A DNA stretch of 64,000 nt from a bacterium (GTDB taxonomy: Bacteria; Electryoneota; JAOADG01), in NCBI GenBank assembly GCA_963681965.1, contig OY820579.1, positions 1,600,001 to 1,664,000 of the forward strand. Reading direction: 5' to 3'. How positions within the stretch are numbered: position 1 is the stretch's first letter; each line of letters begins with the position of its first letter. The notes beneath the pieces were generated by a model. That model ran no database searches, was not told where the DNA came from, and was given only the letters and a program-made list of their open reading frames with translations. Both the position numbers and the translations under genes were made by a program. This document shows positions 793 through 38,412 of the stretch, piece by piece.

Positions 793-2631
793 TTACTCCG
801 CTGCTGGTTCTTCGCCAACAGTTTCATCCTTCTCTTCTTCCTTGTCTTCGTCTTTCTGTTCCTTCACCATGTCGCCGATGGTCGGTGCACCAGTCGGTAG
901 CGGCATGGGCATTTCGTCGTCGGACGGCATCGTCAAATCTTTGGCAAATTCGACCGCAGTCAAAATCACCTTACGATTGTCCTTATCGAATTCTGTCACT
1001 TCCACGACCAATAGATCGTCGGATTTGAGCGATCGTCGTTTTGGACCTTCCGGCGAGCGCGACAGCAACGAATTCGGAATGAATCCTTCGATACCGTACG
1101 GCAATTCGACGATGATTCCCTTTTCAACCAACCGGACAACTTTCGCTACCGTGCGGGAATGAATTGGGAACGTATCGGCAAACACATCCCACGGATTCGA
1201 TTCAAGACGCTTCAGCGACAACCCGATGCGGCGTTCGTCTTTGTCGAGCGACACAACCATCACTTCGATAGTATCGCCTTTCTTCAACACGTCGCTGGGG
1301 TGACGAATTTTCTTCGTCCACGACAAGTCGCTAATGTGAATCAAACCGTCGATTTCCGGTTCCAATTCGACAAATGCGCCGAACGGTACGAGATCGCGAA
1401 CCACACCCTTGTGCTTGCTGTTGATCGGATATTTCTCTTCGATCGTCAACCACGGATCCGGGGAAACCTGCTTCATACCGAGCGAAATCTTGCGATTTTC
1501 GCGATCGATCTTGAGCACTGCGACTTCCACTTCGTCGCCGACCTGAACCAACTGCGACGGGTGTTTCACGTGCTGCGTCCAGCTCATTTCACTGACGTGA
1601 ACCAAACCTTCGACACCATTTTCCAATTCTACAAACGCGCCGTAGCGAGCCAACGAGACCACGCGACCCTTGACCTTGGTGCCACTCGGGTAACGGGTTT
1701 CGATATCGTCCCAGTAATTTTCTTGCAATTGCTTGAGACCAAGCGAAATGCGGCGTTTATCGGGATCGTAGGAAAGTACTTTGACAGTAATGCGCTGATC
1801 GAGTTGAACCACTTGCGACGGGTGTTCGACGCGGCTCCAAGACAAATCGGTAATGTGGAGCAAACCGTCGACGCCACCAAGGTCGACGAAGACACCGAAG
1901 TCGGTAATATTCTTGACCGTACCTTCGATCACGACATCGCGGCGACCTTCTTCGATGATCAACTTGTGCAATGTATCCAGAATTTCCGTGCGGCGTTCGC
2001 TCAGACCTTCTTCCACCAAAACCTTGCGCGAAACCACGACGTTGCGGCGTTGGTCGTTCACCTTGATGATCCGGAAGTCCATCGTGCGACCAAGCAACTG
2101 ATCGAAATCGCGAACCGGATGAACGTCGACTTGCGAGCCGGGGAGAAATGCGTCGATACCCATCAGGTCGATCACCAGACCGCCCTTGATGCGCTTAACG
2201 ATTCTGCCTTGGACTGTTTCGCCCTTGTCGTGGAGATCTTTCACTCGTTCCCAAACACGGAAATGATCGGCCTTGCGCTTGGAAAGAACGGGGTGACCTT
2301 CGTTGTTCATCGCATCGAAAAACACTTCGATTTCGGAGCCGACTTTTAAATCGACCAAGTCGGAGAATTCATCTACCGGAATTACGCCATCGGATTTGTA
2401 ATTCAACGAAATCGTGACTTCTTTTTCGCTGATCGATGTCACTTGACCTTTAACAATCGTACCCGGTTCGATATCGGATGCGGTCATGTTGATCAGGTCG
2501 GAATAATGCTTCATCTGTTCGATACTATGCTCGTCGGACTCGTCCGGCAGCACAAGCTTGGCTTTCTTGCCCTTGCGAAAGATGACTGGTTCTGGAGTGT
2601 TAGTAGTGCTGGTGGTTTCCTCGAACGCCAT
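793..2631 (-). CDS. rpsA: 30S ribosomal protein S1
   Basis: 612 aa with repeated S1 domains (GTVKNITDFGVFVDLGGVDGLLHITDLSW, YGAFVELENGVEGLVHVSEMSW). Confidence 0.97.
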   Translation of the reverse strand: MAFEETTSTTNTPEPVIFRKGKKAKLVLPDESDEHSIEQMKHYSDLINMTASDIEPGTIVKGQVTSISEKEVTISLNYKSDGVIPVDEFSDLVDLKVGSEIEVFFDAMNNEGHPVLSKRKADHFRVWERVKDLHDKGETVQGRIVKRIKGGLVIDLMGIDAFLPGSQVDVHPVRDFDQLLGRTMDFRIIKVNDQRRNVVVSRKVLVEEGLSERRTEILDTLHKLIIEEGRRDVVIEGTVKNITDFGVFVDLGGVDGLLHITDLSWSRVEHPSQVVQLDQRITVKVLSYDPDKRRISLGLKQLQENYWDDIETRYPSGTKVKGRVVSLARYGAFVELENGVEGLVHVSEMSWTQHVKHPSQLVQVGDEVEVAVLKIDRENRKISLGMKQVSPDPWLTIEEKYPINSKHKGVVRDLVPFGAFVELEPEIDGLIHISDLSWTKKIRHPSDVLKKGDTIEVMVVSLDKDERRIGLSLKRLESNPWDVFADTFPIHSRTVAKVVRLVEKGIIVELPYGIEGFIPNSLLSRSPEGPKRRSLKSDDLLVVEVTEFDKDNRKVILTAVEFAKDLTMPSDDEMPMPLPTGAPTIGDMVKEQKDEDKEEEKDETVGEEPAAE

Positions 2632-3008
2632 TACAAATTTCCTATAAGCCTCCCCGCGTTGAACGCGCTCTTCTGGTTCCAGTAGGAACGTTAGTCGGCG
2701 ATACCTTATCGATAATTAACCAATCTTCATAAATCCCGGTATGATGTCCTCCGAGAAAATTTCCGATTACAGCATATCAAATTGTCGCGTCGACAAATAA
2801 AGAGTTAAATCAAAAGCGAGAGAGTAAAGGGACCGACTAGGTTACAGTGTTTGAACGGCGGTCCAATCCGAACAAAACAATACAAGTTATAACTATTCTG
2901 TGAGAAAATGCAATCTTTCTAGATTGAAAATTGACACACTCTCTGAGTACCAATAAACAGTATGTTCTTAATTTACTAGAACTTCGCGTTTGAAAGACAA
3001 TAAAATGC

Positions 3009-3878
3009 TTAGTTATTAATATTCAATGAATTAATAAATTCACTCGGAATTGGCACTTTGTTACCCGAGAAGTCGGTTGCCACGTGGACGCTACTTGCCG
3101 TCGCACAAACCTCGCTTTGTTCGTCAAGAATACGATAGCCGTAGGTCATTGAACTTGCTCCAATCCGGATAATTTCCAGCTCGATTGTTACCGATTGACT
3201 GGTTTGGAGCGGTCTCAAAAAGTCCCCTTCCCAATGGACGACGGGAAGTCCCCATTTGCGTTCTTGCAGCATTTTTCCAATTGAAAATTGTATACTCGAG
3301 AGCCACTCTTCATTCACCCGATGGCAGATTCGAAATAGGTTCGCGTTGAAAATAATTCCCGCAGCATCGGTATCATCCAGATGAATCGTCTCGTTCTTTC
3401 GAAAGACTACCCGCGAGTTGGTTTTGGGTTCCGGTCGAATGCCATTGATCCAATTTTTCAAGAACCGTAAACCCTTACTGTAACTTGCAATACCATTGCC
3501 TTTAAAGGTTGCCACACAGACATCGGTTAGATATGAAGTGCGTCGAAAGAAATCGCGATTGGAAGGATCGGTCAGGTGAACTTCAACGACCGGATAGGAT
3601 ACTGCTTTAATCGTATCGTGCAGCGACACGCTGGTGTGAGTTAGACCACCAGCGTTGAGCAAGACACCGTCAGTTTCGGAGCGGATTGCTTGGAGTTGAT
3701 CGATTAGTTGACCTTCATGATTCGATTGAAAATGTTTCAACCGGAGATCGAGTGATTTTGCTTCTTCGTCCAACTGATTTTGCAGTTCGGTAAGCGACAT
3801 CGTACCGTACAGCTCGGGTTCGCGTTCTCCTAATAAATTCAGATTGGGACCTTGAATAATCCAAATTGTCGCAACCAT
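3009..3878 (-). CDS. aroQ: Type II 3-dehydroquinate dehydratase fused to a hotdog-fold thioesterase (probable DHNA-CoA thioesterase)
   Basis: N-terminal GPNLNLLGEREPELYG, QSNHEG and THTSV motifs of AroQ. C-terminal ~135 aa has DTDAAG..F......CH...EEWL and LPVVH..DF, like 4HBT/cyanobacterial Slr0204-type thioesterases. One uninterrupted ORF. Confidence 0.88.
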   Translation of the reverse strand: MVATIWIIQGPNLNLLGEREPELYGTMSLTELQNQLDEEAKSLDLRLKHFQSNHEGQLIDQLQAIRSETDGVLLNAGGLTHTSVSLHDTIKAVSYPVVEVHLTDPSNRDFFRRTSYLTDVCVATFKGNGIASYSKGLRFLKNWINGIRPEPKTNSRVVFRKNETIHLDDTDAAGIIFNANLFRICHRVNEEWLSSIQFSIGKMLQERKWGLPVVHWEGDFLRPLQTSQSVTIELEIIRIGASSMTYGYRILDEQSEVCATASSVHVATDFSGNKVPIPSEFINSLNINN

Positions 3879-4972
3879 CAGGCAACCCTCCCTTTGTGAA
3901 GATGGGTAATGCGGCTAGTGATAACTTCAGTTATTATCTCGCTTCCAATATCCTGTTGGATAATGGGTTTTCCAATTCCTTCAAGCATAATCCAGCGATT
4001 GGATCCTGCACTACGTTTTTTATCGTGACTCAAATATGAAATAATCGTCTCAGGATTGACAATCGCCTTCGGTACCGGGATCTTTCTAATTGCTTCGTTG
4101 ATCGTTTTCCAGGTTGGTTCTGGTAAAAGGTTCAGTTTCAGTGAGAGATCGATTGCGACACCCAATCCCCAAAGAACAGCTTCGCCATGACGGAAGTAAT
4201 TATACCCGGTGGCAGCCTCCAAAGCGTGTCCGGAAGTGTGACCGAGATTCAAGTATAGCCGTTCGCCACGGTCGTACGGATCTGAATTTACTACCGCAAT
4301 TTTTTTGGATATACATTCATGAACAATGTCGATGGTTGGAGGTACAGAAATGTCTGATTCAATCACCTTGGTCCACATCGCATCGCCGATTAATAAACTG
4401 TATTTGTAAATTTCACCCCAGCCGCAATACAATTCCCGATTGGGTAAGGTTCGAATATAACCGGCATCGACGATAACATGTTCCGGAGGATGAAATGCAC
4501 CGATTAAGTTTTTTCCAGCACTGAGATTTACTCCTGTTTTTCCACCGATCGCTGCATCTACCGATCCGATTATGGTTGTTGGTACTGCGATCCAGTGGAT
4601 TCCACGAAAAACGATCGCCGCAAGAAATCCTACGATGTCGCTGATTACACCACCACCTAACGCAATGAGACACGAATTTCGATCAATCCCTTTGTGAATG
4701 CACTGCTCGGCGACACGTTCGATCGTTTGAAGGCTTTTTTGTTCTTCACCTGCAGGAAGTACAATCACTGCGGATATCTCTGACCTGACTTCGTTCCAGA
4801 TCGCTTCGTAATGACTCCAGACGTTGGAATCGGTGATGATAATCGATCGTTGAGCGGAATCTATCAGCGAACAGACAGAGCTGGGAAAATTTCCATCGGC
4901 AAAATGGATTTCAGTGGAGTGAGTTCCGAAAGTGAACGTTTGAGTTAAGGTTTGTAACATCGTATACGTCAC
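3878..4972 (-). CDS. aroB: 3-dehydroquinate synthase
   Basis: GEEQKS, ALGGGVISD, VPTT...VDAAIGGKTGVN, KNLIGAF and LNLGHT motifs. Confidence 0.96.
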   Translation of the reverse strand: MTYTMLQTLTQTFTFGTHSTEIHFADGNFPSSVCSLIDSAQRSIIITDSNVWSHYEAIWNEVRSEISAVIVLPAGEEQKSLQTIERVAEQCIHKGIDRNSCLIALGGGVISDIVGFLAAIVFRGIHWIAVPTTIIGSVDAAIGGKTGVNLSAGKNLIGAFHPPEHVIVDAGYIRTLPNRELYCGWGEIYKYSLLIGDAMWTKVIESDISVPPTIDIVHECISKKIAVVNSDPYDRGERLYLNLGHTSGHALEAATGYNYFRHGEAVLWGLGVAIDLSLKLNLLPEPTWKTINEAIRKIPVPKAIVNPETIISYLSHDKKRSAGSNRWIMLEGIGKPIIQQDIGSEIITEVITSRITHLHKGRVA

Positions 4973-5529
4973 TGTTGAGTTTTGGCGGTATTGATTAATG
5001 CAATGAGACGCTCGGTGGTAATCGTTACCGGTTCGTCTTCATCGATGAATATGATCGCATCGCAACCTTGATAAACACGGTCGCGTTCTTCACGAAGCTT
5101 GCGAATTAGAGATTCGACTTCTGCCGGCGAATTACAGCCAGCGATCAAGGGGCGTTTGGGATTGTTGCCGACTCGTTTACATAAAACTGGAATAGATACA
5201 TCGAGGAAGATGGAGAATCCGGCTCGATGAATCTCCGTTAATGCCCCTTTGATCGTTAATGTTCCCCCACCCAGTGCGACGACTCCTTTTGGTTCTCTAC
5301 ACACTAATTGAAGTTCTTCCCACTCTCGCTGGCGAAAACCTATCCAGCCCTGTTCTTGGACTTGTTGTGCGATAGGTATCCCGTACTTCGTCTCCAATCG
5401 TTGGTCAAGATCGTACACCGGAAGCCGGAAGGCGTAGCCGATCCGACGAGCCAGTGACGATTTTCCACATCCCATTAATCCCGCGAGGAAAATGTGTCCC
5501 AACGATTCCCCCAAGCAGCAAAATGACAT
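4969..5529 (-). CDS. aroK: Shikimate kinase (start uncertain)
   Basis: IFLAGLMGCGKS P-loop, DLD, FR..E, VALGGG and RPL motifs. Confidence 0.93.
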   Translation of the reverse strand: MSFCCLGESLGHIFLAGLMGCGKSSLARRIGYAFRLPVYDLDQRLETKYGIPIAQQVQEQGWIGFRQREWEELQLVCREPKGVVALGGGTLTIKGALTEIHRAGFSIFLDVSIPVLCKRVGNNPKRPLIAGCNSPAEVESLIRKLREERDRVYQGCDAIIFIDEDEPVTITTERLIALINTAKTQQ

Positions 5530-6641
5530 TTCATCTCGGCGATACTATCGCCACCGATTTTCGCAAGGAGTTCTTTAGCTAGAACAAATGCTACTACATG
5601 CTCGCCGACAATGCTGGCTGCAGGAACGGCACAAACATCTGACCGTTCTTTCAACGCTTGAGTTGGTTCATTGGTCGCTAAATCGATCGATCGTAACGAT
5701 TGACGCAGCGATGCCAATGGTTTCATCATTGCGCGGATGATAATCAGTTCACCGTTACTAATACCCCCCTCGATGCCACCGGAGTGATTGCTGGTTCGGT
5801 GAATTGAACCAGTTTCAGTCAAATTAAGTTGATCGTGGAATTGCGCACCGGACAGACACCCATCTTCAATATCGCCGATTGAAACCGATTTAATTGCCGG
5901 AATCGACATCACTGCTTGAGCCAATTGCCCGTCAAGACGGCGATCAGCCTGAACATAGGATCCCAAACCGATTGGAACATTAATGGAGATCACCTCAAAT
6001 TCACCACCTAATGTATCGCCTTCTAGTTTGCATTTATCGATTTCTTGAATCATCTGGTGCTCGGCATTCGGGTCGATGCATCGCACTAATGAACCGTCGG
6101 CAATGGAGTTTATCACATCGTAGTTTGTCAATTTAGTTGTAGCAGATACTTTACCAATTCTCCGAACATGCGATGCGATTCTAATATCGAATTGCGACAA
6201 TAATTCCCGGCAAATCGCTCCAATTGCCACTCGCATTGCTGTTTCGCGAGCACTTGCTCGCTCAATCACAGTCCGAATGTCGGTTAAATGATATTTAAGA
6301 ACTCCGGCGTAATCAGCATGACCCGGACGCGGCATGGTTAATGGTTCGCTTGGGTTTGATACCGGTGTGATTGATGTTTTCTCGATCCAATTTTCCCAAT
6401 CAAGATTCTTAATCAACAGACTGATCGGTGCACCTGTTGTGATACCATATCGAATGCCACTCAGTATTTCAACTTGATCGTGTTCGATTTTCATTCGATC
6501 GCCGCGACCATATCCCATTTGTCTTCGTTGAAGTTGCCGATCGATCAATTCAGAACTGAGTTCAAGACCTGCAGGAATACCATCGAGAATTCCTGTAAGA
6601 GCCTGACCATGCGACTCGCCGGCTGTCAGATAGCGCAGCAT
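5475..6641 (-). CDS. aroC: Chorismate synthase
   Basis: MLRYLTAGESHG, PRPGHAD, ERASARETA, NHSGGIEGGISNG and ERSDVCAVP motifs. Confidence 0.97.
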   Translation of the reverse strand: MLRYLTAGESHGQALTGILDGIPAGLELSSELIDRQLQRRQMGYGRGDRMKIEHDQVEILSGIRYGITTGAPISLLIKNLDWENWIEKTSITPVSNPSEPLTMPRPGHADYAGVLKYHLTDIRTVIERASARETAMRVAIGAICRELLSQFDIRIASHVRRIGKVSATTKLTNYDVINSIADGSLVRCIDPNAEHQMIQEIDKCKLEGDTLGGEFEVISINVPIGLGSYVQADRRLDGQLAQAVMSIPAIKSVSIGDIEDGCLSGAQFHDQLNLTETGSIHRTSNHSGGIEGGISNGELIIIRAMMKPLASLRQSLRSIDLATNEPTQALKERSDVCAVPAASIVGEHVVAFVLAKELLAKIGGDSIAEMKCHFAAWGNRWDTFSSRD

Positions 6642-7444
6642 AGTTCGATCTCCAATTGTCTTAAACTTTCCTCAGGGAATGCCCGATCTGTCCAAATGGA
6701 GAAGGATGACATTGCCTGACCCAATAAAATTCGCAATCCGTTTTGTACGGTCGATCCCGATTCAATCAATAGTTTCATGACCGACGTCATTATCGGTGAA
6801 TAAATTGATTCAAGATAATAACTTCCCGGTAGTGGAAGTAGATTGAATGGGAATGGAGATGATACTCCATCAGAGCCAATCGGTGTTGCATTAACAACTA
6901 ACGAAGAATTTTGCCCGAGTGCAACGCGATCGACCCAAGAATGAATAGACAAGAGGTCTGGATATCTCGCGCAGAGACCTTTCCACTCCGGTAGAAAATG
7001 TCTCATCGATACGGCAACATGCCAATTATTTTGCAACAATTCCAATGTCGAGGCACGCGCAAATCCTCCACCACCAAGAATCAATGCATTGCGATCAATG
7101 GTTGATAAATTCCATGGTTTAAGTGCAAATTGAAGTCCGAAACCATCTGTCGAATCAGCGATCCAACCTTTCTCGCCTCGAATGAGTGTATTGGCAGATT
7201 GAATTATTTTTACCGTCGAACTGATATTTTCGCAATATTGAATTACCGCATATTTGAATGGATTCGTTATATTCAATCCTTGAAAACCATCGCGGAAGAG
7301 TTGATCAAGCGTTTCATGCAAATCTTCACTTCGGGTTGGAAGTAATTGATAACTTCCTTCCATCCGAAGTTCATCGAGTGCTGCTAGATGTATCTTTGGA
7401 GAAAGCGAGTAGTCAATCTGCCCACCGATGAGTCCCAGTTTCAT
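6626..7444 (-). CDS. aroE: Shikimate dehydrogenase
   Basis: SLSP.IH, GLNITNPFK, ANT, TDGFG, LGGGGFARA and VNATPIG motifs. Confidence 0.93.
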   Translation of the reverse strand: MKLGLIGGQIDYSLSPKIHLAALDELRMEGSYQLLPTRSEDLHETLDQLFRDGFQGLNITNPFKYAVIQYCENISSTVKIIQSANTLIRGEKGWIADSTDGFGLQFALKPWNLSTIDRNALILGGGGFARASTLELLQNNWHVAVSMRHFLPEWKGLCARYPDLLSIHSWVDRVALGQNSSLVVNATPIGSDGVSSPFPFNLLPLPGSYYLESIYSPIMTSVMKLLIESGSTVQNGLRILLGQAMSSFSIWTDRAFPEESLRQLEIELCCAI

Positions 7445-8733
7445 GAAACAACTCCCAGCTTTTCGGAAAGCTCTTCGAAAAATCCGGGATAGGACACATC
7501 AACCGCTGTCGCATTAACAAGTGTGGTTTCACCTTTTGCGACTAAGCTGGCAACAGCAAAACTCATGGCTATTCGGTGATCATTCATGCAATCGATTTTT
7601 GAACCATGTAACCGTTTCGTAGCTTCGAAGGCGAATCCGTCGTTGTACTCTTCACACGAAACCCCCATTGCACGCAACCCAGCTACTAATGCCAGAATCC
7701 GATCGCACTCTTTTAATCGCAATTCCTGTGCATCTCGTAATTGAAATCGTCCTCCCGATCCGGCGGCAACGATTGCCAAGATCGGCAATTCGTCAATCAA
7801 ATACGGTACGGATCCGCCGTTGATATCAAAAGAAAAGTGTCCACCGGAGGTAACAGAGATTATTCCGATCGGTTCACCATTACTTGTTGATTGTTGTTCG
7901 ATCGTGATCTTTGCGCCGGCAAGCATTAGTTGTCGATAAAATTCTATTCGACTGGGATTGATCCCGACCGATTCTAGAACAAGTGCCGAGCCCGGCACCA
8001 AGAGCGCGATCGTTGTCCAAAATGCACCACTGGAAGGATCACCCGGAATAATCCCGTCGGGTATTGGAATTGTTGTATCGCGAGACACACGCCACGAAGT
8101 GACATTATCAACTTGAGTCGGAGTTAGTTGTAATAACCGCTCAGTGTGATCGCGTGAGGGAACGGGTTCAATGATCTCGGTATAACCATCTGCATGCAAT
8201 CCGGCAAATAGCAATGCGGATTTTAATTGGGCACTGGCAATCGGCATCCGGTAACGGATCCCATGCAAAAGTGATGGATGAATATTGACTGGTAGTTTCC
8301 CATCCGTGGTCGTAATTTGCGCCCCCATTAGACGTAATGGGTCCGCGATCCGGTCCATTGGACGATTACTCAATGATTGGTCGCCAGTCAATTCAGCAGT
8401 AACCGATTTACCAGCTAGAACACCCATCAACAGACGACAAGTCGTACCGGAATTAGCACAATTAATTGGGACTGTCGGTTGGTGTTTACCTATCGGACCA
8501 ATGATTCTGAAAGTAGAATGATATTGATCGATCTGAATGCAATCTGTCGATACACTTAATCTTTCCAAAGCAAACAAGGTTGAATAGAGATCGGCACCAC
8601 AGCGATAGATGGTTAGGTCGATAGGTTGAGAAAATAAACTCGCTAAGAGCAGGCGACGGTGTGCAATGGATTTATCGGAGGGGAGTTCGATCGAACAGAG
8701 AAGTGGGTGTTTCGCTGCCGATATTTTGATCAT
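7441..8733 (-). CDS. aroA: EPSP synthase (class II-like)
   Basis: [46 protein letters not shown] and DHRIAM motifs. Confidence 0.96.
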
Positions 8734-9602
8734 GTGCTGGGAAACGCTCGATCAATCGCAGTTGCAATCCGCGACAGATCGTAGCTTAAAGACTTCAATT
8801 GAGTAGGATAGAGTGACTGATCGCCGTCGGAAAGTGCACAATCGGGATTGGTATGGACCTCAATCATCACGCCATCGGCACCAGCAGCAATTGCAGCACG
8901 TGCCATCGGTGAAACCAATTCGCGATCGCCGGTTGCATGACTCGGATCGGCTATGATTGGAAATGAGCAGATTTGTTTCAATTTGGGAATGATTGTTAAA
9001 TCGAACGTACTCCGCGAGTAATCGACAAATGTGCGAATTCCGCGCTCACAAACCACAATCTGATCGTTCCCTTCGCCAGTGATGTATTCGATCGCACCTA
9101 ATAATTCGGTTAAAGTCGCTGCCATGCCACGTTTGAGTAACACCGGTTTGCGAGATCTACCTACCCGCCTTAGTAAGCTAAAATTCTGCATGTTACGCGA
9201 TCCGATTTGCAACATGTCAACGACAGGTTCCAACTCGTTGACTTGGGCAATATCCATGACTTCGGTTACCATCGGCAGATTTTCGTGATCCGCCGCTTCC
9301 CGTAGCCATTTGATCGCTTCAATACCAATCCCCTGAAACGCTGCTGGTGAAGTACGTGGTTTAAAGGCACCGCCGCGTAAAATCGTACCGCCCGATGCCC
9401 TGACAAGTTTTGCAACCGCTCTAATCTGATCGAATGATTCAACTGCACAGGGACCGGCAATCATTACTAGCCGATTGCCCCCAATTAACACATTTCCCAC
9501 AGGAATGGGTTTGGTCGCGATGCACTGGTTAGACGTGTCGGTATATCCCGACTCTAATGGCGGGACAACAGAATTGCTGGGAAGTTTATTCGATTCAGGC
9601 AT
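8730..9602 (-). CDS. aroF: DAHP synthase, class I-beta
   Basis: [43 protein letters not shown] and DPSH motifs. Confidence 0.95.
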
Positions 9603-9733
9603 AGTATGATAGATTGATAATGATAATAAATTCTCGAGTTTCGGATTATTACCGAAACCTTACAATTTCGCTATGGATTGATACGAATGCAAGGAGGTAC
9701 CGTTGGAGATTATATCTTGTTTCCGACGGACAA

Positions 9734-11185
9734 TTACAGCTGACTTCGAGTAAATATCTCGAACAGGCGTTCTCGATTCGGTTTTCCGTTGGGTAAGGTA
9801 GGTATCTCATCAAGTAATAACCAATATTTCGGGATTTTAAAGCCGGATAATTTTCCATGTAAGAATTGCTTGAGATCGTCGATTGATTGGGTTTGAGTCA
9901 GTTCAATTGCAGCTACGACAGCTTCTCCCCAATCTTTGTCCGGAACTCCGAAAACGACTGCTAAGCGAATTAGACGATTGGTCATTAAGATTTGTTCAAT
10001 TTCACTAGGGCTGATGTTTTCACCACCACTAACTATCCGGTCAACTTGTCGTCCAGCAACGATGAGTGTGCCTTGGGGAGTTAAATATCCCAGATCACCG
10101 GTTCTGATCCAACCATCCTTGAAGGTTTTTTTCGATTCTAGCTCATTGCCTTCGTATCCTATCGCAGCAGCAGGGCTCTTGACATAGATTTCGCCCGAAA
10201 ATCCGGGTTGCAATACTTCGTCAGATTCATTCCGAATTTCTACAGTAACACCAGGAAGAGGTAGACCGGCACTTCTCCGGATCGATAATTCCGAATTTGG
10301 TGGTACAGTGGTAATCTGTGACCCTGCCTCACTCATTCCATAACTAGCCACAAATCTTGGATCTCGCTCTAGCAATTCAGTTGGGATTGATCCTCCTCCA
10401 ATCAATACAAGCTGTACACAATCAGGTAGCGGCTGATTATTTCTGAAAGCTAGCAATCGTTGAAGTGTGGTTGGAACCAAAGACAGATGACTGATTGTGC
10501 CACTTTCAATTACATCGTTGACTTCAGTCGCCTCGAATTTATCCAATAGATGAAGCGATAAACCGGTCATCATCGATTTCATAAAACTACTAATTCCACC
10601 AATGTGGAATAATGGTAAAGTGATAAGCCATCGGTTAGTATTACTGAATAATAGGTGTTGCTCCGACATTTTCGCATGTGCCTCTAACGCTTGCCATGGA
10701 AGTACAACACGTTTCGGAATTCCGCTCGAACCGGAAGTGAAAATCACTAATGAAGAAGCTAGATATTGATTATTATACAAGGTTTTCTGACACTGTTCCC
10801 AGAACGCATCGAAAATGAATTCATCGATCTTAAATCGATACTCACATTCTAATTCTGTAAATTGTAGGTTATTATGTTCATCGAATAATATCAAATCGAA
10901 TGGACAATCACCTAATGCCCTTGCTTGCTCTTCGGTCGTCCAGTATGTTGGAAGTAGGATCGTAGTACAACCACTCTTGAGTGCTGCCCCAACAGCGATT
11001 AAATATAAATCCGATGAACTGGAAAGAATCCCAACACGAAACGAATGACCCTGAGAAAACGCTAGAATTCGTTGTGAGACATTGTCAATAATTTCTGCAA
11101 TCTCGAAGAAATCATATTGACGATCATGCCACAATAGGGAGGGTGAATTAGGTTGATTTGACTGATGAAGATCAAGCGGAAACAT
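9734..11185 (-). CDS. menE: O-succinylbenzoate-CoA ligase
   Basis: AMP-binding motifs IFTSGSSGIPK, LPLFHIGG, SYGMSE, TGDLG and SGGENI; lies in the men cluster. Confidence 0.9.
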   Translation of the reverse strand: MFPLDLHQSNQPNSPSLLWHDRQYDFFEIAEIIDNVSQRILAFSQGHSFRVGILSSSSDLYLIAVGAALKSGCTTILLPTYWTTEEQARALGDCPFDLILFDEHNNLQFTELECEYRFKIDEFIFDAFWEQCQKTLYNNQYLASSLVIFTSGSSGIPKRVVLPWQALEAHAKMSEQHLLFSNTNRWLITLPLFHIGGISSFMKSMMTGLSLHLLDKFEATEVNDVIESGTISHLSLVPTTLQRLLAFRNNQPLPDCVQLVLIGGGSIPTELLERDPRFVASYGMSEAGSQITTVPPNSELSIRRSAGLPLPGVTVEIRNESDEVLQPGFSGEIYVKSPAAAIGYEGNELESKKTFKDGWIRTGDLGYLTPQGTLIVAGRQVDRIVSGGENISPSEIEQILMTNRLIRLAVVFGVPDKDWGEAVVAAIELTQTQSIDDLKQFLHGKLSGFKIPKYWLLLDEIPTLPNGKPNRERLFEIFTRSQL

Positions 11186-12287
11186 CGTTGATTCGCTTCC
11201 AGGAAAAGTCGATCGACGATTTCATCTGAAAGCCCATCCCATTGGAAATAGGATCGAAAACAATGACACCTCGTTGAACATGATGATCCGCAATTGTATC
11301 CGATTCGAGTAGGCGATTTGTCGATATTCCATGTGCAAAATGGTTGTTCGGAAGCGATGCTGCTAGATGGAAATAAGCTGCGGCTGCAATTCCGGAATCC
11401 ATTGATGATGAGAATACTGCTTTGATTTCATTCTGTTCGGCTAGGAGGGCAAGATCGCGTGACCGCAATATGCCACCTAGAGTCATTGGTTTGAGAACAA
11501 ATGAAACGTTTGGATGAATTGTAATCCATTTTCGACATTGAGTTTCGCTCGATACCGATTCATCGAGTGCAATTGAAACTGGAACATCGCGTATTCGATT
11601 TAAAAAGAGTTCAATATCGTAATCTGCAACTGGTTGTTCGATGTATTCAATTCGCAAATCGGCGAGTCTAATTGTTCGATCGATCGCATCTTCGAGTGTC
11701 CAGCTTCCGTTGATATCGAAGCGGAATTGAGTATCTGGAAAAGACTTAATTAACTCGGTAAGTTTCTTGTAATCGGATAGAAAATCGGTACTGGTTTTTA
11801 ATTTGAATGTGCGATAACCAAGGTGTCGATAGGAATCGACAGTCTCCAACACGTTCTGATCGGTGTTCGATAACAATTGTGTAACAGGTATGATCGTATT
11901 GAGTTCACTGTTGAGGAGCATTCCGACTGGCAACTTTAAAAAATTACCAATTCGGTCGAGAACTGCGCTTTCTAGCGCAAACCGAAGTGCAGGGCGAAAA
12001 TCCAAAACCGTATCAAGTGCCGACATGAATTCCGGTACCGATTCAAGTTCGTCGGGAAACGGAATTTCTTTGATAAAAGGTTGTAGATCATTCACTCCTT
12101 TTACAGTTTCGGCGAGTGTTTCAGTACCCCAATCTGGTAACGGTGCCGCTTCGCCAATTCCGAAAGTCCCATTGTTATCACTGACTCGAAGCAAAACAAT
12201 ATTGCGTTCGATCCATGCCGATCGAATAGCATCAACGCGATGTTGAAATCGGAGTACGATAGGTTGCCACTGAAGCCGAGTTATCAT
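11172..12287 (-). CDS. menC: O-succinylbenzoate synthase
   Basis: Enolase-superfamily motifs GIGEAAPL, FKLK, RFDING.W, YIEQP, ALDES and LKPM.LGG; men context. Confidence 0.88.
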   Translation of the reverse strand: MITRLQWQPIVLRFQHRVDAIRSAWIERNIVLLRVSDNNGTFGIGEAAPLPDWGTETLAETVKGVNDLQPFIKEIPFPDELESVPEFMSALDTVLDFRPALRFALESAVLDRIGNFLKLPVGMLLNSELNTIIPVTQLLSNTDQNVLETVDSYRHLGYRTFKLKTSTDFLSDYKKLTELIKSFPDTQFRFDINGSWTLEDAIDRTIRLADLRIEYIEQPVADYDIELFLNRIRDVPVSIALDESVSSETQCRKWITIHPNVSFVLKPMTLGGILRSRDLALLAEQNEIKAVFSSSMDSGIAAAAYFHLAASLPNNHFAHGISTNRLLESDTIADHHVQRGVIVFDPISNGMGFQMKSSIDFSWKRINDVSA

Positions 12288-13162
12288 AGCGCGATCGCAA
12301 GTCCCAGCGATAATCCGAAGATGAGTTGCAATCGAGCAGTGAGGATGAGTGCTTGAATCAAGTCTTCGGGAATTGTTGTTCGAAAAACAATACTGATCGG
12401 TTTAACTGAAAAATAAAGTACCGGAAGAAGCCAATAGATCCGGTGCAACTGGTTAACTTGGTGCAATATAAGTATAGCAATAAAGAAACTGAATACAATG
12501 CTCAAAAAAAACTCAATTCGTCCAAATCGATATCCAAATCTTGCCGGAAGAGTTAATTTATTGGCTTCTCGATCAGTTGGGATGTCGCGAATGTTATTCA
12601 CACAAATTAAACTGATTGACAATAATCCCGGTGCAACTCCTGCAAGCATTGCCAGTTGTGACCACTCCAGGGTGAGTAAATAACTGGTTCCCGATACAGC
12701 AATGATACCGAAAAATCCGATCAGAAAGAATTCACTTAGCCCTTTGTAGGCGATTGGAAAAGGTCCTGCTGTATAAAATACGCCACATAAAATTGATGTA
12801 GATCCGATAATAACAATACTCCAACCTCCTCGAAGTGCGAGGGGGATTCCCAATAACAGAGCAAGCGCAAAAACCAAAAGAAATCCATTTCGAACAGTTC
12901 TTGGTGGTATCAGACCCGATTGCGTTACTCGCATCGGACCAGAGCGCTTCACATCGGCACCTTTGCGATAATCGTAGTAGTCGTTTGCGATATTCGTTCC
13001 GACTTGGATCAAAACTGCCGCAAATAAAATCGGAATCACCCACCAACCGTTGAAATTGGGGTGTCGAAGTGAAATTGCAAATCCAATCCACACCGGAAGA
13101 ATCGAAGCGATTAACGTTTTCGGACGGGCAGCAAGCAACCAATTGTGAATATTAGTTGTCAC
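12284..13162 (-). CDS. menA: DHNA polyprenyltransferase
   Basis: WLLAARPKTL, NIANDYYDY.KGAD and VNNIRDIPTD...K.TL motifs; hydrophobic. Confidence 0.95.
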   Translation of the reverse strand: MTTNIHNWLLAARPKTLIASILPVWIGFAISLRHPNFNGWWVIPILFAAVLIQVGTNIANDYYDYRKGADVKRSGPMRVTQSGLIPPRTVRNGFLLVFALALLLGIPLALRGGWSIVIIGSTSILCGVFYTAGPFPIAYKGLSEFFLIGFFGIIAVSGTSYLLTLEWSQLAMLAGVAPGLLSISLICVNNIRDIPTDREANKLTLPARFGYRFGRIEFFLSIVFSFFIAILILHQVNQLHRIYWLLPVLYFSVKPISIVFRTTIPEDLIQALILTARLQLIFGLSLGLAIAL

Positions 13163-13989
13163 TACGGTAACCGCGGGTACTTGCCGAAATCGGGTTTACG
13201 TTTTTCTAGATAAGCTTTTTTACCTTCTTGACCTTCTTCGCTCATGTAATACAACAGCGTTGTATTACCCGCGAGTTCCTGGATCCCGGCTTCGCCATCA
13301 GTTTCGGCATTGAATGCGGCTTTCAGGCAACGCAATGCCATAGGTGAATGCGCAAGCATTTCCCGACACCACTCAATGGTGGTCGTTTCAAGTTGATCCA
13401 AGGGCACGACCGTATTCACTAGTCCCATATCCAATGCTTCTTGAGCAGTATATTGACGACAGAGGAACCAGATCTCTTTCGCTTTTTTATGACCCACTAT
13501 TCGAGCCAAGTAGCCGGCACCGAAACCGCCATCGAAACTCCCGACTTTCGGACCAGTCTGACCAAATCGCGCATTGTCGGCTGCAATCGTAAGATCGCAT
13601 ACGATATGTAAAACATGACCGCCACCGATCGCGTAACCTGCGACCATCGCTACCACTGGCTTTGGTAGGCTGCGAATCTGTTTTTGCAAGTCGAGTACAT
13701 TCAAACGAGGTACTCCGCTGGCATCGACATACCCTTTATCGCCGCGAATACGTTGATCCCCACCACTACAAAACGCCAAATCGCCTGCGCCGGTTAAGAT
13801 GGCAACGCCAATTTCGGGATCCTCGCGTACATCCAGAAAGGCAATTTGTAGCTCTGCCAACGTTTGTGGACGAAACGCATTGCGAACTTCGGGACGATTA
13901 ATGGTGATTTTGGCAATACCATCCAGCTTTTCATAAATGATATCGGTAAAAGTCCCGGCTGATTTCCAAGGATATTTAGATTGTGTCAT
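13162..13989 (-). CDS. menB: 1,4-dihydroxy-2-naphthoyl-CoA synthase
   Basis: [27 protein letters not shown] and [12 protein letters not shown] motifs. Confidence 0.98.
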
Positions 13990-14819
13990 TTCGAACCTAT
14001 TTGAGTATTCGTTAAAAATGTGAACATGATCTGCATCAATGCATCAGGTTGTTCCGTCGGTGCATCATGACCGCAATTAGGGATCAGTTCCAATCTCGAA
14101 TTCGGTATATATTGTACGTAATTTTTTATCGCATTGGCATATTTCAAATCATCTTTTCCAGCGATAAATAGCATGGGCGTGTCTAATTTTGACAAATGAT
14201 CCAGCAAATACTCCTGTTTTCCAACCGAAAGTGTTCGTAGGCTCTTTGCCAACTGCTTGGGATTCTGAGCCATCCAGCTATCGCGAAGAGTGGATAATTG
14301 ATCTATCGGCAGGCTCTGTCGGTGTTTAAAAATAGGTAAGTTCTCCCAATACTCTGAAAACCATTCCATTCCTCGATTTTCAATCCATTTTGCCAACTGC
14401 TCATCAGATTGGTCTCGTTCTAATCGGTCGTCTAGGTCTGAAATTCCTGCTGATCCGCTGATTAAAATTGCAGATTGGATCGGGAGATGAGAGTGCGCTA
14501 ATAAATGCATTGCAAAACGAGCACCGAGTGAATATCCAACTAACTCTATTGGTTGATCGACAAGATCCCGAAGCTGATTGGAAAGATCGTCGACAACCTG
14601 ATCCCAAGTCAAATTACATTTTTCTGGTAATACCGACTTACCGTGACCGGGCAGATCTGGTGTAAGACAATAGAACGTTTGCGAAAGTAACTCCAGAAAT
14701 GGCGACCAGTACCGATGAGTTCCAGCAAAACCGTGGAGTAGAAGTAGCGGGGGATTTTTTTTCTCACCGCAATCGACTAGAAACCAATCGATACCAGTTT
14801 TTGTGGAATGAAGGATCAT
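13986..14819 (-). CDS. menH: SHCHC synthase (alpha/beta hydrolase)
   Basis: LHGF.G, DLPGHG, GYSLGAR and R...D..LA motifs; located between menD and menB. Confidence 0.9.
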
Positions 14820-16582
14820 CGGTTGACAGTTTTTCGCAATTTCTGAAGGAAAGCTGTTACTTCGCTTTCAGTTTCAGATCGGTCGGAGTATATCTCAAAC
14901 ACTCGGGGAAAAGGAATCTCAACCAGATCATCAAGCACTTCCATCAGATTGGTATAGGATTTAATTCGATAAAAATAGACTCCTAAACCGTGACAAACAT
15001 GTTTAAAATCGATCTGTTGTTGAATTCCCTGTATTGTTTCGAAACTGTCAACATCGGTTGACGATTCGATATCGGATGTTTTCAATGACTTTCGAGCAGG
15101 TAAATAGTGGAAAATTCCTCCGCCACCATTGTGACTAAGGAGGATTGTGATTGGTAACTTTAATCGAGAAATTAACTCAAGCGCATTGAGATTGTGGAAG
15201 AAAGCCAAATCACCGATCACGATGTATGTTGGCATATCCGAAGCGATTGCGATTCCAGTTGCAGTTGAGAGGATTCCGTCAATACCGTTAGCGCCTTTGT
15301 TCGCAAAGAAGTGCGTAATGGGGTTGCCTTGCGAAAACCAGTCAGCATACCGAATGGACATCGAATTCGACAGAAAACAGTTGCTATCGCGAGTAGCATA
15401 ATCAATCATCGTTGGTGCGATAAATGCTTCCAGTGGTATATTCTCATCGATACTTTCTCGGTATACGATATCTTCTTGTATTGCGTCGATTCGTTCCCAC
15501 TCTCTAGTAGCGTCATGCTTGTATTCTTGTTGAGTCCGACCAATCAACTCGTCGATCACAGATCCGATAGGTCTATGAATCGTTAATGTCACAATTCGGT
15601 CGGGATCGATTGTCTGCGAATGAGACTGTATTCGAAAGCACGGACATTTCTGTGAAGCCATCCAATGGAACATCGGATTGGAAGTAGGATAATTGCCAAA
15701 CCAGAGGATGCAGTCGCTGTGAAGTGTCTCACTCGCTGCTCGAATAGCTAATACAGGATACTTCAACGATTTTGGTTTTCCTCGTAATCCCGAAACGATG
15801 TCAGCCAGAATTGGAGCATCGAATTTTTCAGCGAGCGAATTGATAAGAGTTCCATCAATATCCGTTTCGCAAGCATCGGGACCAGCGACGATTACGGGTT
15901 TTTCCGCTGATGTCAAGGCGTGAAGTAGTTGATCAATTGCCGATTCATCGATTTTTTCGGCAATCAATTGAACCGGGGCTAAATTCAAGATCGCTTTTTC
16001 AGCTTGATGCCACAGATTGACAATTTGCTCTGATTCAATACCAATCGGCTGTAACGGCTCTTCGAATGGACAATTGATATGAACCGGTGCGCGATTCAAA
16101 CCCATCGCACTCGAATAGCTTCTAATCGCAAGATCAATGATTTCTGTTACGGATTGTTGATCGGAAATTTCCGGTAAACTAGTCTCCAGTGACACGTAAC
16201 TACCGAAAATACCTGTTTGTTGAATCGTTTGCGGTGAGCCGCATTGTTGCATCGATTCCGGACGATCTGCCGTTAAGACGATCAAAGGTGTTCGACTGTA
16301 ATATGCCTCAACGATCCCCGGTAAATAATTGGCGACAGCAGTCCCGGAAGTGCAAATGAGAATCGCAGGTTTTCGCGAAGATTTTCCCATACCCACTGCC
16401 AGAAACGCCGCATTTCGCTCGTCGACTTCCACAATTGATTGCAATCCGGAAGTATGAATTGCACAGTGAGAAAGGGGAGTATTGCGGGAACCGGGAGAAA
16501 TGACTACAAATTCGCAACCAAGTTTCACCAAAGCTGAGAGTATCGTCTGAGCGCGTAGCCAGTTACGGTTCATTGGAATCAT
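14816..16582 (-). CDS. menD: SEPHCHC synthase
   Basis: ISPGSRNTPL, DERNAAF, ICTSGTAVAN, LTADRP, NKGANGIDG and GDLAF motifs. Start placed at the ATGA overlap with the menF stop. Confidence 0.95.
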   Translation of the reverse strand: MIPMNRNWLRAQTILSALVKLGCEFVVISPGSRNTPLSHCAIHTSGLQSIVEVDERNAAFLAVGMGKSSRKPAILICTSGTAVANYLPGIVEAYYSRTPLIVLTADRPESMQQCGSPQTIQQTGIFGSYVSLETSLPEISDQQSVTEIIDLAIRSYSSAMGLNRAPVHINCPFEEPLQPIGIESEQIVNLWHQAEKAILNLAPVQLIAEKIDESAIDQLLHALTSAEKPVIVAGPDACETDIDGTLINSLAEKFDAPILADIVSGLRGKPKSLKYPVLAIRAASETLHSDCILWFGNYPTSNPMFHWMASQKCPCFRIQSHSQTIDPDRIVTLTIHRPIGSVIDELIGRTQQEYKHDATREWERIDAIQEDIVYRESIDENIPLEAFIAPTMIDYATRDSNCFLSNSMSIRYADWFSQGNPITHFFANKGANGIDGILSTATGIAIASDMPTYIVIGDLAFFHNLNALELISRLKLPITILLSHNGGGGIFHYLPARKSLKTSDIESSTDVDSFETIQGIQQQIDFKHVCHGLGVYFYRIKSYTNLMEVLDDLVEIPFPRVFEIYSDRSETESEVTAFLQKLRKTVNR

Positions 16583-17844
16583 GATTCGTTCCCTTGGATT
16601 GCACGTTTCATCGTCTGCATTTTCCAGTTGGTTTCTTCCCACTCATTATCAGGATTCGATTTATCGACAATTCCAACACCAGCATAAATTCTTGCCTGAT
16701 CGCCAGTAATCATTGCCGATCGAATTCCGACAGCAAATTCCGCTTCTTCATGACTAACCCATCCGACGACACCACTATAATACCCACGATCTTGTTTCTC
16801 CAGCACTGATATTTGATCAAGTGCTATCGATCGAGGATCGCCTCCGATAGCTGGTGTTGGGTGGAGCGCAGCAAGAATTTGCTCTAGTCCCGTATCGGAT
16901 CGCAAATATCCTTGAATCTGGCTGTAGAGATGTTGAACTGTGGCGAATTTCCGTATCGAAGGTTCGGGTTTCGGTGCAACATTGCTACACAACCCGCGAA
17001 ATGAACTTATCAACCAATCAACGACAACTTCGTGTTCCCAGCGGTCTTTATTCGAATGAAATAAAAGATCGGCAAATTTCCGATCTTCTTCGCCGTTGTT
17101 TCCTCGCGGTCTAGTTCCAGCGAGTGCATCGGCTGAGAGGAGATTGTTCGATACCCGACAAAGTTGTTCGGGAGATGCCCCAATAAAGCTGCCTTCTTCG
17201 GTAGGAAATTGAAATCGAAAACTGCTGGAATTCTCAGCTACCATATTCGAATAGATTTGCGAAAGATCCGAATCAGATGGAGAAGGAATCTCATCGAAAC
17301 GCGCTAACACCATTTTCCGGATTTTTCCGGCGGTGATCCATGTTTGGATAGTATTGATGCACTGACGCCAAGTGGTTTGATCCATCGGTGTTACTGCTGG
17401 AGCAGTCGTAGTCCGGGAGTGAGATATTTGAGAGATGCTTGCGATGTCGCTCAACAGCATTGCATTCGGATCATGCAGGCAAAATTGTCGTGAACCGGTT
17501 AATATCGCTTCAAATTGGTTCTGTTTGTGCAAAATAGTCCATTTCGGGAGCAGCCACCGGTTTCGATGCTTCCACGTTTCGGTTCGGAAAGGCAATGCGG
17601 CAAAACACCGCAGGTCGCTGATCGGTTCAATAGAATTTGACTGCAGAGTTCGTAAATAGGATTGCGCATCGTCCGCTGACCGAAAGCTGTTCGCTTCATC
17701 ATATCCGATCCATTCGGTATCAGAATCGCGGCCGATCCAGCGGGTGAGTTCAGCCGTTTTCGTATTCAGCAACGAATCGATTAACTTGGCATTCGGAATA
17801 AACCGAACGGTCGTGAGCGGGTGGGTTTCGGATTCGGCAAACAT
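16579..17844 (-). CDS. menF: Isochorismate synthase
   Basis: K.VLAR, FIGASPE, ALAGT, K...EH..VV, LHPTPAIGG, RGYYSG and YAGVGIV motifs. Confidence 0.92.
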   Translation of the reverse strand: MFAESETHPLTTVRFIPNAKLIDSLLNTKTAELTRWIGRDSDTEWIGYDEANSFRSADDAQSYLRTLQSNSIEPISDLRCFAALPFRTETWKHRNRWLLPKWTILHKQNQFEAILTGSRQFCLHDPNAMLLSDIASISQISHSRTTTAPAVTPMDQTTWRQCINTIQTWITAGKIRKMVLARFDEIPSPSDSDLSQIYSNMVAENSSSFRFQFPTEEGSFIGASPEQLCRVSNNLLSADALAGTRPRGNNGEEDRKFADLLFHSNKDRWEHEVVVDWLISSFRGLCSNVAPKPEPSIRKFATVQHLYSQIQGYLRSDTGLEQILAALHPTPAIGGDPRSIALDQISVLEKQDRGYYSGVVGWVSHEEAEFAVGIRSAMITGDQARIYAGVGIVDKSNPDNEWEETNWKMQTMKRAIQGNES

Positions 17845-17845
17845 T

Positions 17846-17854
17846 TGCTATAAT
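17846..17854 (+). promoter_or_regulatory. Extended -10 promoter element (TGnTATAAT), probably for menG
   Basis: TGCTATAAT ends 42 nt upstream of the GTG at 17897. Confidence 0.55.
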
Positions 17855-17896
17855 TTGGATTGGAAACGAGCCAGAAACAAACGGAAAGGTCGAAAA

Positions 17897-18601
17897 GTGG
17901 CAAAAGTCGCCGAAGGCAGGGAACAGGAAGCAGTTGGACAGATGTTCGATCGGATTTCTCGCCGCTACGACCTTGCCAACCGGTTTCTTTCGATTGGAAT
18001 TGACCAGCTCTGGCGCAGAAAAACCCTCAAGAGCCTAGGGGATTGGTCGGGAAAAATCCATTTGGATGTCGCTTCCGGTACAGGAGATCTTGTACTGATG
18101 AGTGGTCGGTTGAAACATCCCCCCGCGCATCGGATAGCTTTAGATTACTCGCGGAATATGATGCTTTATGGTCAAACCCGCTATCCCGGCGAGCCGATCG
18201 AGTGGGTCCAAGCTTCTGCCGATGCACTTCCCTTACAGGATCGATCCGTCGATATCGTCACAATTGCATTTGGCATCCGGAATGTCGCCAAATATCCCGA
18301 AGCGCTACGTGAATTTCACCGGGTACTCCGTCCAGACGGAAAAGTCGCAGTGCTCGAATTCAGTATGCCGCAAAATCCGATTTGGCATGCGATTTACAGC
18401 TGGTATTTCCGAAATATTCTCCCTCGGATAGGGGGAATGCTCAGCGGTAATTTCGACGCCTATCGTTATCTGCCCGCATCGGTATCGCGGTTCCCTTACG
18501 GCGAAAGCTTTGCAAACTTGCTTACGGAAGCTGGTTTTGGCAAGGTGACTTTTGAACCGCTGACGGGTGGTATCGCTACACTCTATTTGGCTGAAAAGTA
18601 A
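17897..18601 (+). CDS. menG: Demethylmenaquinone methyltransferase (UbiE/MenG)
   Basis: MFDRIS.RYDL.N..LS.G.D..WR, LDVASGTGD, IAFGIRNV and AYRYLP.S motifs. Start set at GTG 17897 to avoid overlap with menF. Confidence 0.93.
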   Translation: MAKVAEGREQEAVGQMFDRISRRYDLANRFLSIGIDQLWRRKTLKSLGDWSGKIHLDVASGTGDLVLMSGRLKHPPAHRIALDYSRNMMLYGQTRYPGEPIEWVQASADALPLQDRSVDIVTIAFGIRNVAKYPEALREFHRVLRPDGKVAVLEFSMPQNPIWHAIYSWYFRNILPRIGGMLSGNFDAYRYLPASVSRFPYGESFANLLTEAGFGKVTFEPLTGGIATLYLAEK

Positions 18602-28455: not shown

Positions 28456-28568
28456 GGTGATCTCACGATGGTTGAGAAACGATAGGAAAGATATAAAATT
28501 GTTTAGAATTTTCTATGGAGGATCTAGAAAATAGCAAACAAAAAATAAGATCATTGAATTTTTGAAAA

Positions 28569-29288: not shown

Positions 29289-29289
29289 T

Positions 29290-38389: not shown

Positions 38390-38412
38390 CTTATCATCCT
38401 GCAGAGATATCC

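Follow-up and report, generated by a model that had tools for sequence, protein, structure and literature searches.

In a 64,000-nucleotide stretch of bacterial DNA (contig OY820579.1, positions 1,600,001 to 1,664,000; the whole stretch is called the window), a single minus-strand gene joins a complete type II 3-dehydroquinate dehydratase (AroQ) to a hotdog thioesterase domain. The fusion is real. Its architecture pairs two known families in a new way and is confined to one family-level lineage. Sequence comparison, gene context and modelling suggest that the protein is quite probably a bifunctional AroQ/MenI. With the activities that we infer for the two halves, AroQ would dehydrate 3-dehydroquinate in step 3 of the shikimate pathway, and the hotdog half would hydrolyse 1,4-dihydroxy-2-naphthoyl-CoA (DHNA-CoA), the MenB product and its presumed substrate, to DHNA for use by MenA.

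The open reading frame (ORF) at 3009..3878 (-) starts with ATG and encodes 289 amino acids with zero internal stops. The initial annotation, made from the letters of the window, had described one continuous frame with a complete AroQ followed by a hotdog domain, and this was borne out by the ORF list and by a Pfam scan. DHquinase_II (PF01220) matched residues 5-140 (E value of 9.6e-49, 165.1 bits, cut-off 23.3), 4HBT_2 (PF13279) matched residues 167-282 (E value of 3.9e-15, 56.8 bits, cut-off 25.5), and 4HBT (PF03061) matched residues 174-259 (38.9 bits, cut-off 20.6), so that the PF01220 and 4HBT models it had named both scored above cut-off. The motifs it had read in the hotdog domain (DTDAAG, CH...EEWL and LPVVH..DF) are present in the translation within DDTDAAG (168-174), ICHRVNEEWL (184-193) and GLPVVHWEGDF (211-221). 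An AlphaFold2 model of the full fusion, built from a 95-row alignment, had a mean predicted local distance difference test (pLDDT) score of 92.5 and a predicted template modelling score (pTM) of 0.70. In this model the last AroQ helix spans residues 131-144, residues 145-156 are unstructured, and the first hotdog strand spans 157-164; the block pLDDT is at least 88 over residues 1-150 and lowest, at 69, for the block 151-160. The modelled linker, at 3411-3446, agrees with the junction earlier estimated at about 3410-3450. Alignment A3 served only as AlphaFold input, because a few end residues of its rows with one domain are assigned to the other half. The protein most likely consists of two independent catalytic domains on a flexible linker.

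The alternative that the single ORF is an artefact, in which a sequencing or assembly error at the junction merged two adjacent genes for AroQ and a hotdog protein, is effectively refuted, and we leave it next to no probability. Contigs assembled from runs X1 and X3, which come from two studies, span 2900-4100 unbroken and match it exactly (0 differences, 0 indels), so the check across the junction revealed neither a stop nor a frameshift, and the window's genome is itself a single contig, rated 99.91 % complete. Contig ends from X4/X5 at 3450, 3505, 3746 and elsewhere had been considered as variants and were rejected as library artefacts, since their loose ends are GATC-bordered or adapter. 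What can be said for an artefact is that the runs covering the junction may include the sample from which the assembly was made; otherwise nothing specific speaks for it. The independent support is therefore the open fused frame kept in other genomes. Among 41 related genomes, the fused gene is present in all four of family f1, the window's own family, and it also occurs on the metagenome contig L118, as a search for the same architecture in relatives established. Two of these genomes (G002 and G003) carry it as one frame. In the third relative, G001, the gene is split between two contig ends with about 54 identical bases in common, and so is one gene broken by assembly. Six full-length fusions (P0001-P0006) can be aligned end to end with 48-57 % identity and a variable linker (49-58 % between P0002-P0006 and the window protein by BLASTP). 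The most divergent of them, P0005, is encoded on L118 after aroC-aroK-aroB. Against an error at the junction, then, stands the same open frame in G001, G002, G003, P0004, P0006 and L118, at 48-58 % identity and with differing linkers.

The AroQ half is in register with M. tuberculosis AroQ (1H05) from residues 5-142 to 5-142, is 45 % identical to Zymomonas mobilis 6SMF, and scored 165.2 bits on NF003807 (cut-off 130); on the stricter equivalog TIGR01088 it reached 154.1 bits, under the cut-off of 169.85. Residues N12, R19, Y24, N75, H81, D88, E99, H101, R108 and R112, which we take to be the catalytic and substrate-binding positions (M. tuberculosis numbering), are invariant in all six fusions. 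Superposition on solved AroQ chains gave template modelling (TM) scores, normalised to the target, of 0.93-0.95 with root mean square deviations of 0.8-1.7 A. The AroQ half is the sole PF01220 match in the genome, and type I dehydroquinase (PF01487) had no match in the one contig. As the sole dehydroquinase of a single-contig genome of such completeness, the AroQ half must carry the shikimate flux; it is most likely the cell's only 3-dehydroquinate dehydratase. Its catalytic residues are kept, and the lack of any other dehydroquinase of either type in the genome indirectly supports the predicted activity. A fold search with the full-length model returned only AroQ chains among the matches listed, with query-normalised TM scores of at most 0.49 and none covering both halves, and the hotdog domain was therefore folded separately.

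That separate model (pLDDT 91.0, pTM 0.83) had Slr0204 of Synechocystis (4K00), annotated in the PDB as 1,4-dihydroxy-2-naphthoyl-CoA hydrolase, as its first-ranked Foldseek match (TM 0.87/0.85, 27 % identity). Sequence searches gave the same order. With the single sequence, phmmer against the PDB returned 4K00 at 54 bits, the Prochlorococcus protein 2HX5 at 39 bits and E. coli YbgC at 27 bits. A profile of 17 domain sequences, which includes cyanobacterial-like rows and so favours 4K00, returned 110.6 bits for 4K00, 96.3 for 2HX5, 65.2 for the next match and 55.9 for YbgC. All 17 domain sequences, whether from fusions or from stand-alone proteins, keep D169 and D171 (the DxD motif) and E190. 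The two aspartates align with the DTD of 4K00, and one of them is presumably the catalytic carboxylate.

A maximum-likelihood tree of 59 author-selected rows (36 of them taken from 120 listed relatives) contained seven fusion domains, eight stand-alone proteins of the sister family f6, 16 proteins named by JGI, three Chamaesiphon sequences and 17 unnamed ones, together with six weak paralogues from relatives, the other 4HBT hotdog of the genome and E. coli YbgC. A split with support of 100/97 sets the Slr0204-type clade apart from YbgC, the weak paralogues and the second hotdog of the genome. This clade has 51 rows and takes in every fusion domain, the f6 proteins, the cyanobacterial sequences and the DHNA-CoA hydrolases named by JGI. 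Within it, a long branch of 2.19 changes per column lies between the cyanobacterial sequences and those of the fusions and f6, and a Chamaesiphon member of the clade matches 4K00 at 96.5 bits. The name 1,4-dihydroxy-2-naphthoyl-CoA hydrolase, an automatic JGI annotation, is on 64 of the 120 listed relatives; four others have generic NCBI names, the rest are unnamed, and zero bear another specific name. The moderately supported clade of fusion domains fits a single fusion event. By this placement the hotdog half belongs to the Slr0204-type clade, not to YbgC. The initial annotation had called it an Slr0204-type enzyme, which is upheld by 4K00 as the top match by sequence, profile and fold and by the clade; the grouping with YbgC that it had offered as grounds for refutation was not seen, the domain lying outside the YbgC side of the split.

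Orthologues of the domain are associated with menaquinone genes. In f6 the orthologue stands alone as a gene of about 136-150 codons, with 35-42 % identity across the domain, and it lies tail-to-tail directly after menE in five of the six loci examined (G034, G013, G022, G038 and G030); in the sixth (G008) it is 3.5 kb from menE. Two further genomes, G018 and G026, have it on the same contig as menB, 3-9 kb away. MenB scored above its curated cut-off in 12 of the 41 related genomes (f1, 4/4; f6, 8/8), and exactly these 12 matched the domain profile at 175 bits or more, the other 29 giving at most 48 bits. As a separate observation, the f6 genome G038 encodes a 525-amino-acid AroB-AroQ fusion (DHQ_synthase, DHQS_C and DHquinase_II by Pfam; L008:355-1932), and the other seven f6 genomes have AroQ within open frames of 528-887 amino acids, the Pfam check covering G038 only.

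The gene itself ends a 14-gene, co-directional minus-strand run from 17844 to 3009 with short gaps or overlaps (Table 1). Its order is menF-D-H-B-A-C-E, DAHP synthase, aroA-E-C-K-B and the fusion, with rpsA downstream; the TGA stop of aroB and the ATG of the fusion have one base in common. The whole common aromatic pathway, from DAHP synthase to chorismate synthase, is thus embedded in a menaquinone operon (window positions 3009-18601), an unusually complete arrangement that leads from phosphoenolpyruvate and erythrose 4-phosphate to demethylmenaquinone on one strand. G002 (L106/L026) has the complete gene order including the divergent menG, and the same order was found in G001, G003 and L118 as far as their short contigs reach. 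Of the classical menaquinone steps, only MenI lacks a separate gene here, as had been pointed out initially; menF, D, H, B, A, C and E and menG/ubiE are each present as separate genes. No tol-pal genes adjoin the fusion, which is flanked by aro and men genes and by rpsA. A promoter and terminator scan of 2550-4000 found one promoter-like and two terminator-like sites, no excess over shuffled sequences. Of the sequencing runs listed, none is recorded as RNA.

Table 1. The fusion gene, its parts and the men-aro genes of the window
Feature	Position	Strand	Evidence
aroQ::menI-like fusion gene	3009..3878	(-)	289 codons + stop; ORF list, two Pfam domains, full-length orthologues P0002-P0006
Type II 3-dehydroquinate dehydratase domain (residues 1-144)	3447..3878	(-)	PF01220, NF003807, alignment to 1H05, fold
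Interdomain linker (residues 145-156)	3411..3446	(-)	No secondary structure; varies among 6 fusions in length and sequence
Slr0204-type hotdog (4HBT-class) domain (residues 157-289), putative DHNA-CoA hydrolase	3012..3410	(-)	PF13279, 4K00 likeness, tree, motifs
aroB (3-dehydroquinate synthase)	3878..4972	(-)	TIGR01357, 308.3 bits, cut-off 305
aroK (shikimate kinase)	4969..5529	(-)	NF010552, 93.1 bits, under cut-off 186; named by family resemblance and position
aroC (chorismate synthase)	5475..6641	(-)	NF003793, 423.4 bits, cut-off 321
aroE (shikimate dehydrogenase)	6626..7444	(-)	TIGR00507, 146.3 bits, under cut-off 200.2; named by family resemblance and position
aroA (EPSP synthase)	7441..8733	(-)	TIGR01356, 313.9 bits, cut-off 287.25
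DAHP synthase (B. subtilis/KDO8PS-like type)	8730..9602	(-)	NF006421, 379.1 bits, cut-off 335
menE (o-succinylbenzoate-CoA ligase)	9734..11185	(-)	TIGR01923, 290.9 bits, under cut-off 330.15; top models are menE
menC (o-succinylbenzoate synthase)	11172..12287	(-)	TIGR01927, 138.3 bits, cut-off 130.55
menA (DHNA polyprenyltransferase)	12284..13162	(-)	NF004751, 268.5 bits, cut-off 264
menB (DHNA-CoA synthase), maker of the hotdog's presumed substrate	13162..13989	(-)	NF005637, 497.3 bits, cut-off 380
menH (SHCHC synthase)	13986..14819	(-)	TIGR03695, 225.2 bits, cut-off 208.55
menD (SEPHCHC synthase)	14816..16642	(-)	TIGR00173, 376.8 bits, cut-off 244.2
menF (isochorismate synthase), first in the run	16579..17844	(-)	TIGR00543, 293.9 bits, cut-off 224.75
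menG/ubiE (demethylmenaquinone methyltransferase), divergent from menF	17744..18601	(+)	NF001244, 244.3 bits, cut-off 216

The aroK frame overlaps the end of aroC by 55 bases, and its true start may be a downstream codon. Elsewhere in the window, four further genes encode very large proteins that are probably secreted or surface-bound: a 1947-amino-acid protein with DUF7948, SBBP beta-propeller repeats and fn3 (20174-26017, +), an 805-amino-acid protein with fn3 and LVIVD repeats (32214-34631, -), a 1336-amino-acid protein with lamin-tail domains (42862-46872, -), and a C25 (gingipain-family) peptidase that runs past the window end (62467-63999, +). Six ORFs of 239-668 amino acids at 27724-30393 (-), 36446-38452 (-), 50640-51563 (+) and 56343-57710 (-) had no Pfam match at an E value of 1e-8 or below. 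The lineage that bears the fusion consists of uncultured bacteria with type IX secretion genes.

Next to the assignment of the MenI step to the fused domain, we considered that the hotdog half might be a general or other-substrate acyl-CoA thioesterase, either a YbgC-like housekeeping enzyme or one that proofreads another aromatic CoA ester, with MenI activity coming from another hotdog of the genome or from spontaneous hydrolysis. Genome searches with PF13279 and PF03061 found three places besides the fusion: a YciA-like protein at about 620 kb (43.6 bits, under cut-off), a weak sub-threshold match within a 473-amino-acid frame at about 2.11 Mb, and a 155-amino-acid 4HBT hotdog directly downstream of accA and upstream of the type IX secretion genes porU/porV (G000:C1:1800126-1800593, L025:8127-8594). 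YdiI, the MenI of E. coli, is presumably of the TIGR00369/PaaI type; this domain had no match in the genome, although the control of the same search picked it up in E. coli as well as in 10 further genomes, and the fused protein scored 14.8 bits on it, under the cut-off of 36.6. Several observations weigh against the fused domain as MenI, in addition to the make-up of the profile described above. The best solved relative of the accA-adjacent hotdog, a candidate that the initial annotation did not know of, is 6FDG at 67.9 bits, which PMC8918352 gives as SaDHNA, the DHNA-CoA thioesterase of S. aureus. On MenI_Staph (NF047424) the accA-adjacent protein scored 75.5 bits and the fused domain 19.8, both far under the cut-off of 225, and MenI activity might come from the former, wholly or in part. 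Among NCBIfam models the fused domain matched YbgC/FadM best (TIGR00051, 48.3 bits, under the cut-off of 68.7), and it scored 45.1 bits on TIGR02799 (under 141.35); no Slr0204-type model was among its NCBIfam matches, so NCBIfam could not confirm the assignment. The TM score of the domain to YbgC, 0.85-0.90, is the same as to Slr0204, and structure alone is therefore not discriminating. Support for monophyly of the fusion domains is moderate (81/89; one clade in 80 % of bootstrap trees). The f6 hotdog gene is convergent to menE and not co-transcribed with it, and the MenB co-occurrence comes from two clades only (f1 and f6), which makes at most two independent observations. The 4HBT class is also often promiscuous, SaDHNA having been assayed with stearoyl-CoA and crotonyl-CoA (PMC8918352), and a review states that DHNA-CoA is slowly hydrolysed without enzyme (PMC13452876).

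We nevertheless regard a general thioesterase as unlikely. The fused domain is in the Slr0204-type clade, apart from both YbgC and the accA-adjacent protein; its clade accompanies MenB in 12/12 against 0/29 genomes and abuts menE in f6. By contrast, 39 of the 41 genomes of the phylum carry the accA-adjacent hotdog, 27 of the 29 MenB-less ones among them, and its place in the tree is on the YbgC side, beside paralogues of genomes that lack MenB. Its occurrence regardless of MenB and this position lead us to regard it as a housekeeping thioesterase of the whole phylum, which probably has a link to fatty-acid metabolism and may also hydrolyse DHNA-CoA. A different role for the hotdog half would be that of a ligand-sensing or regulatory appendage, tuning AroQ to a CoA ester of the menaquinone branch much as a GAF domain fused to AroQ might. 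Other C-terminal appendages on AroQ do exist (GAF in P0252 and P0313, GNAT in P0284, alpha/beta hydrolase in P0298), and the two reactions are too distant for channelling. Yet 17/17 domains, whether fused or not, retain E190 and the aspartate pair of the DxD motif, the stand-alone orthologues have no AroQ to regulate, and without the hotdog domain the pathway would have no dedicated MenI; we consider such an appendage very improbable. The bifunctional AroQ/MenI thus remains the preferred reading, and the suggestion of the initial annotation that the fusion supplies the missing step is supported by the Slr0204-type clade, the menE-adjacent orthologues and the MenB co-occurrence, with DHNA-CoA hydrolysis as the predicted reaction.

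The distribution of the architecture was examined in larger collections. In a word-indexed search of 5.8 billion proteins, both Pfam domains were present in seven of the best 120 matches, namely the window protein, P0002-P0006 and a 189-amino-acid fragment (P0007). In an exhaustive HMMER search of 1.84 billion representatives at 50 % identity, P0004 and the fragment P0007 were the only ones of the best 150 to cover both halves. Any fusion more remote than these should have been listed too, since it would have out-scored plain AroQ. Twenty AroQ proteins were scanned with Pfam, comprising seven representatives with two matched stretches or fusion-like length (P0240, P0241, P0260, P0268, P0271, P0297 and P0358) and 13 others, and a hotdog domain was found in none of the 20, which were either two-domain forms of other kinds or plain AroQ. 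Other two-domain AroQ forms were seen in metagenomes, drawn from P0240, P0241, P0009, P0010, P0260, P0268, P0297, P0358, P0252, P0313, P0284 and P0298: tandem AroQ-AroQ (about 276-315 amino acids) and the GAF, GNAT and alpha/beta hydrolase fusions named above. Among loci of named genomes, the hotdog half was matched in one of the 80 retained (L026), and L027 is cut at residue 135 by a contig end; among the 80 metagenome matches listed, at least one is fused (L118). L028 had been considered as an unfused pair of neighbouring aroQ and hotdog genes and was discarded, as it carries aroA-E-C-B-Q without a hotdog. A literature search, with most subscription journals outside its scope, found no description of an AroQ-thioesterase fusion, and the protein searches did not show a common annotated family, in keeping with the earlier remark that this architecture was not recognised as a described enzyme. 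The database names of the fusion proteins mention only "type II 3-dehydroquinate dehydratase," and the second function is therefore currently missed.

Ten reactions lie between the AroQ and thioesterase steps (aroE, aroK, aroA, aroC, menF, menD, menH, menC, menE and menB), so the observation that the fusion joins far-apart steps holds, and at this distance channelling is not the reason for it. The most likely origin is loss of the stop between the two genes once they had come to lie side by side at the 3' end of the men-aro super-operon. In f6 the hotdog gene is at the end of the men operon and AroQ is fused to AroB elsewhere; in f1 the aro block separates menE from the hotdog gene, which runs in the same direction, and the aroQ stop is absent. 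Either state may be the ancestral one. The fusion would tie both activities to one transcript and one stoichiometry.

The two parent families bear on the predicted oligomeric state of the fusion. Type II dehydroquinases are homododecamers (a tetramer of trimers), and many of the AroQ PDB entries matched have 12 or 24 chains. The hotdog active site would lie between two subunits, SaDHNA being described as a tetramer with a proposed active site at the subunit interface (PMC8918352), and the fusion must therefore reconcile two oligomeric symmetries. The display of thioesterase domains on a dodecameric cage, put forward in the initial annotation, is speculative. As far as geometry goes, hotdogs could conceivably pair over the two-fold axes of a tetrahedral dodecamer. 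It is doubtful, though worth stating, that the protein forms a two-layer particle, with a tetrahedral AroQ dodecamer as core and twelve hotdogs paired across its six two-fold axes into six competent dimers. Since the hotdog active site needs two subunits, such a particle would be a natural enzyme-decorated cage in which AroQ assembly is required for the activity of the menaquinone enzyme. Through its quaternary structure the cage would link quinone synthesis to the common aromatic pathway. It might nucleate a men metabolon near MenB and MenA and, if the oligomers are compatible, would provide a case from nature of enzyme display on a dodecameric scaffold.

For annotation, the proposed function would assign the last unassigned menaquinone step of the lineage. 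The Rosetta-stone-type fusion, together with menE adjacency and MenB co-occurrence, provides genomic evidence that a non-cyanobacterial branch of the Slr0204 type may work in menaquinone synthesis, and the fusion suggests that gene order alone can join enzymes ten steps apart. As the lineage is small and the parts are textbook ones, the general impact is moderate.

Compared with known systems, the AroQ half corresponds to solved AroQ enzymes such as 1H05 and 6SMF in having the same whole domain, in register and with the same fold; those chains are about 140-180 residues long without an extra domain, whereas the fusion adds a 145-residue appendage. Slr0204, which Widhalm et al. are said to have identified in 2009 (PNAS) as the cyanobacterial DHNA-CoA thioesterase of phylloquinone synthesis, resembles the hotdog half as a 4HBT-class hotdog of about 135 residues with a DTD-A/G-AG motif, an association with the men pathway and a place in the same clade apart from YbgC. 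It is a stand-alone chain of 141 residues, in contrast to the C-terminal half of an AroQ fusion with a putative activity seen here. SaDHNA shares the hotdog class and the proposed pathway role, but within this genome its likeness is to the accA-adjacent hotdog; the fused domain reached 6FDG only at Foldseek rank 35, with 14 % identity. E. coli YbgC (1S5U, 5KL9), a tol-pal-associated acyl-CoA thioesterase, has the 4HBT-class fold and the DTD motif; it differs in its lower match (27 bits against 54 for Slr0204), in lying on the other side of the 100/97 split, and in its tol-pal context, which is not beside the fusion. Plant PHYLLO, a MenF/D/C/H fusion according to PMC13452876, and the f6 AroB-AroQ protein are similar in that operon neighbours of the shikimate or menaquinone route were merged into one polypeptide. 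These proteins join consecutive or nearby steps, whereas the AroQ-hotdog protein joins step 3 of the shikimate pathway to what would be the thioesterase step of menaquinone synthesis, ten reactions later.

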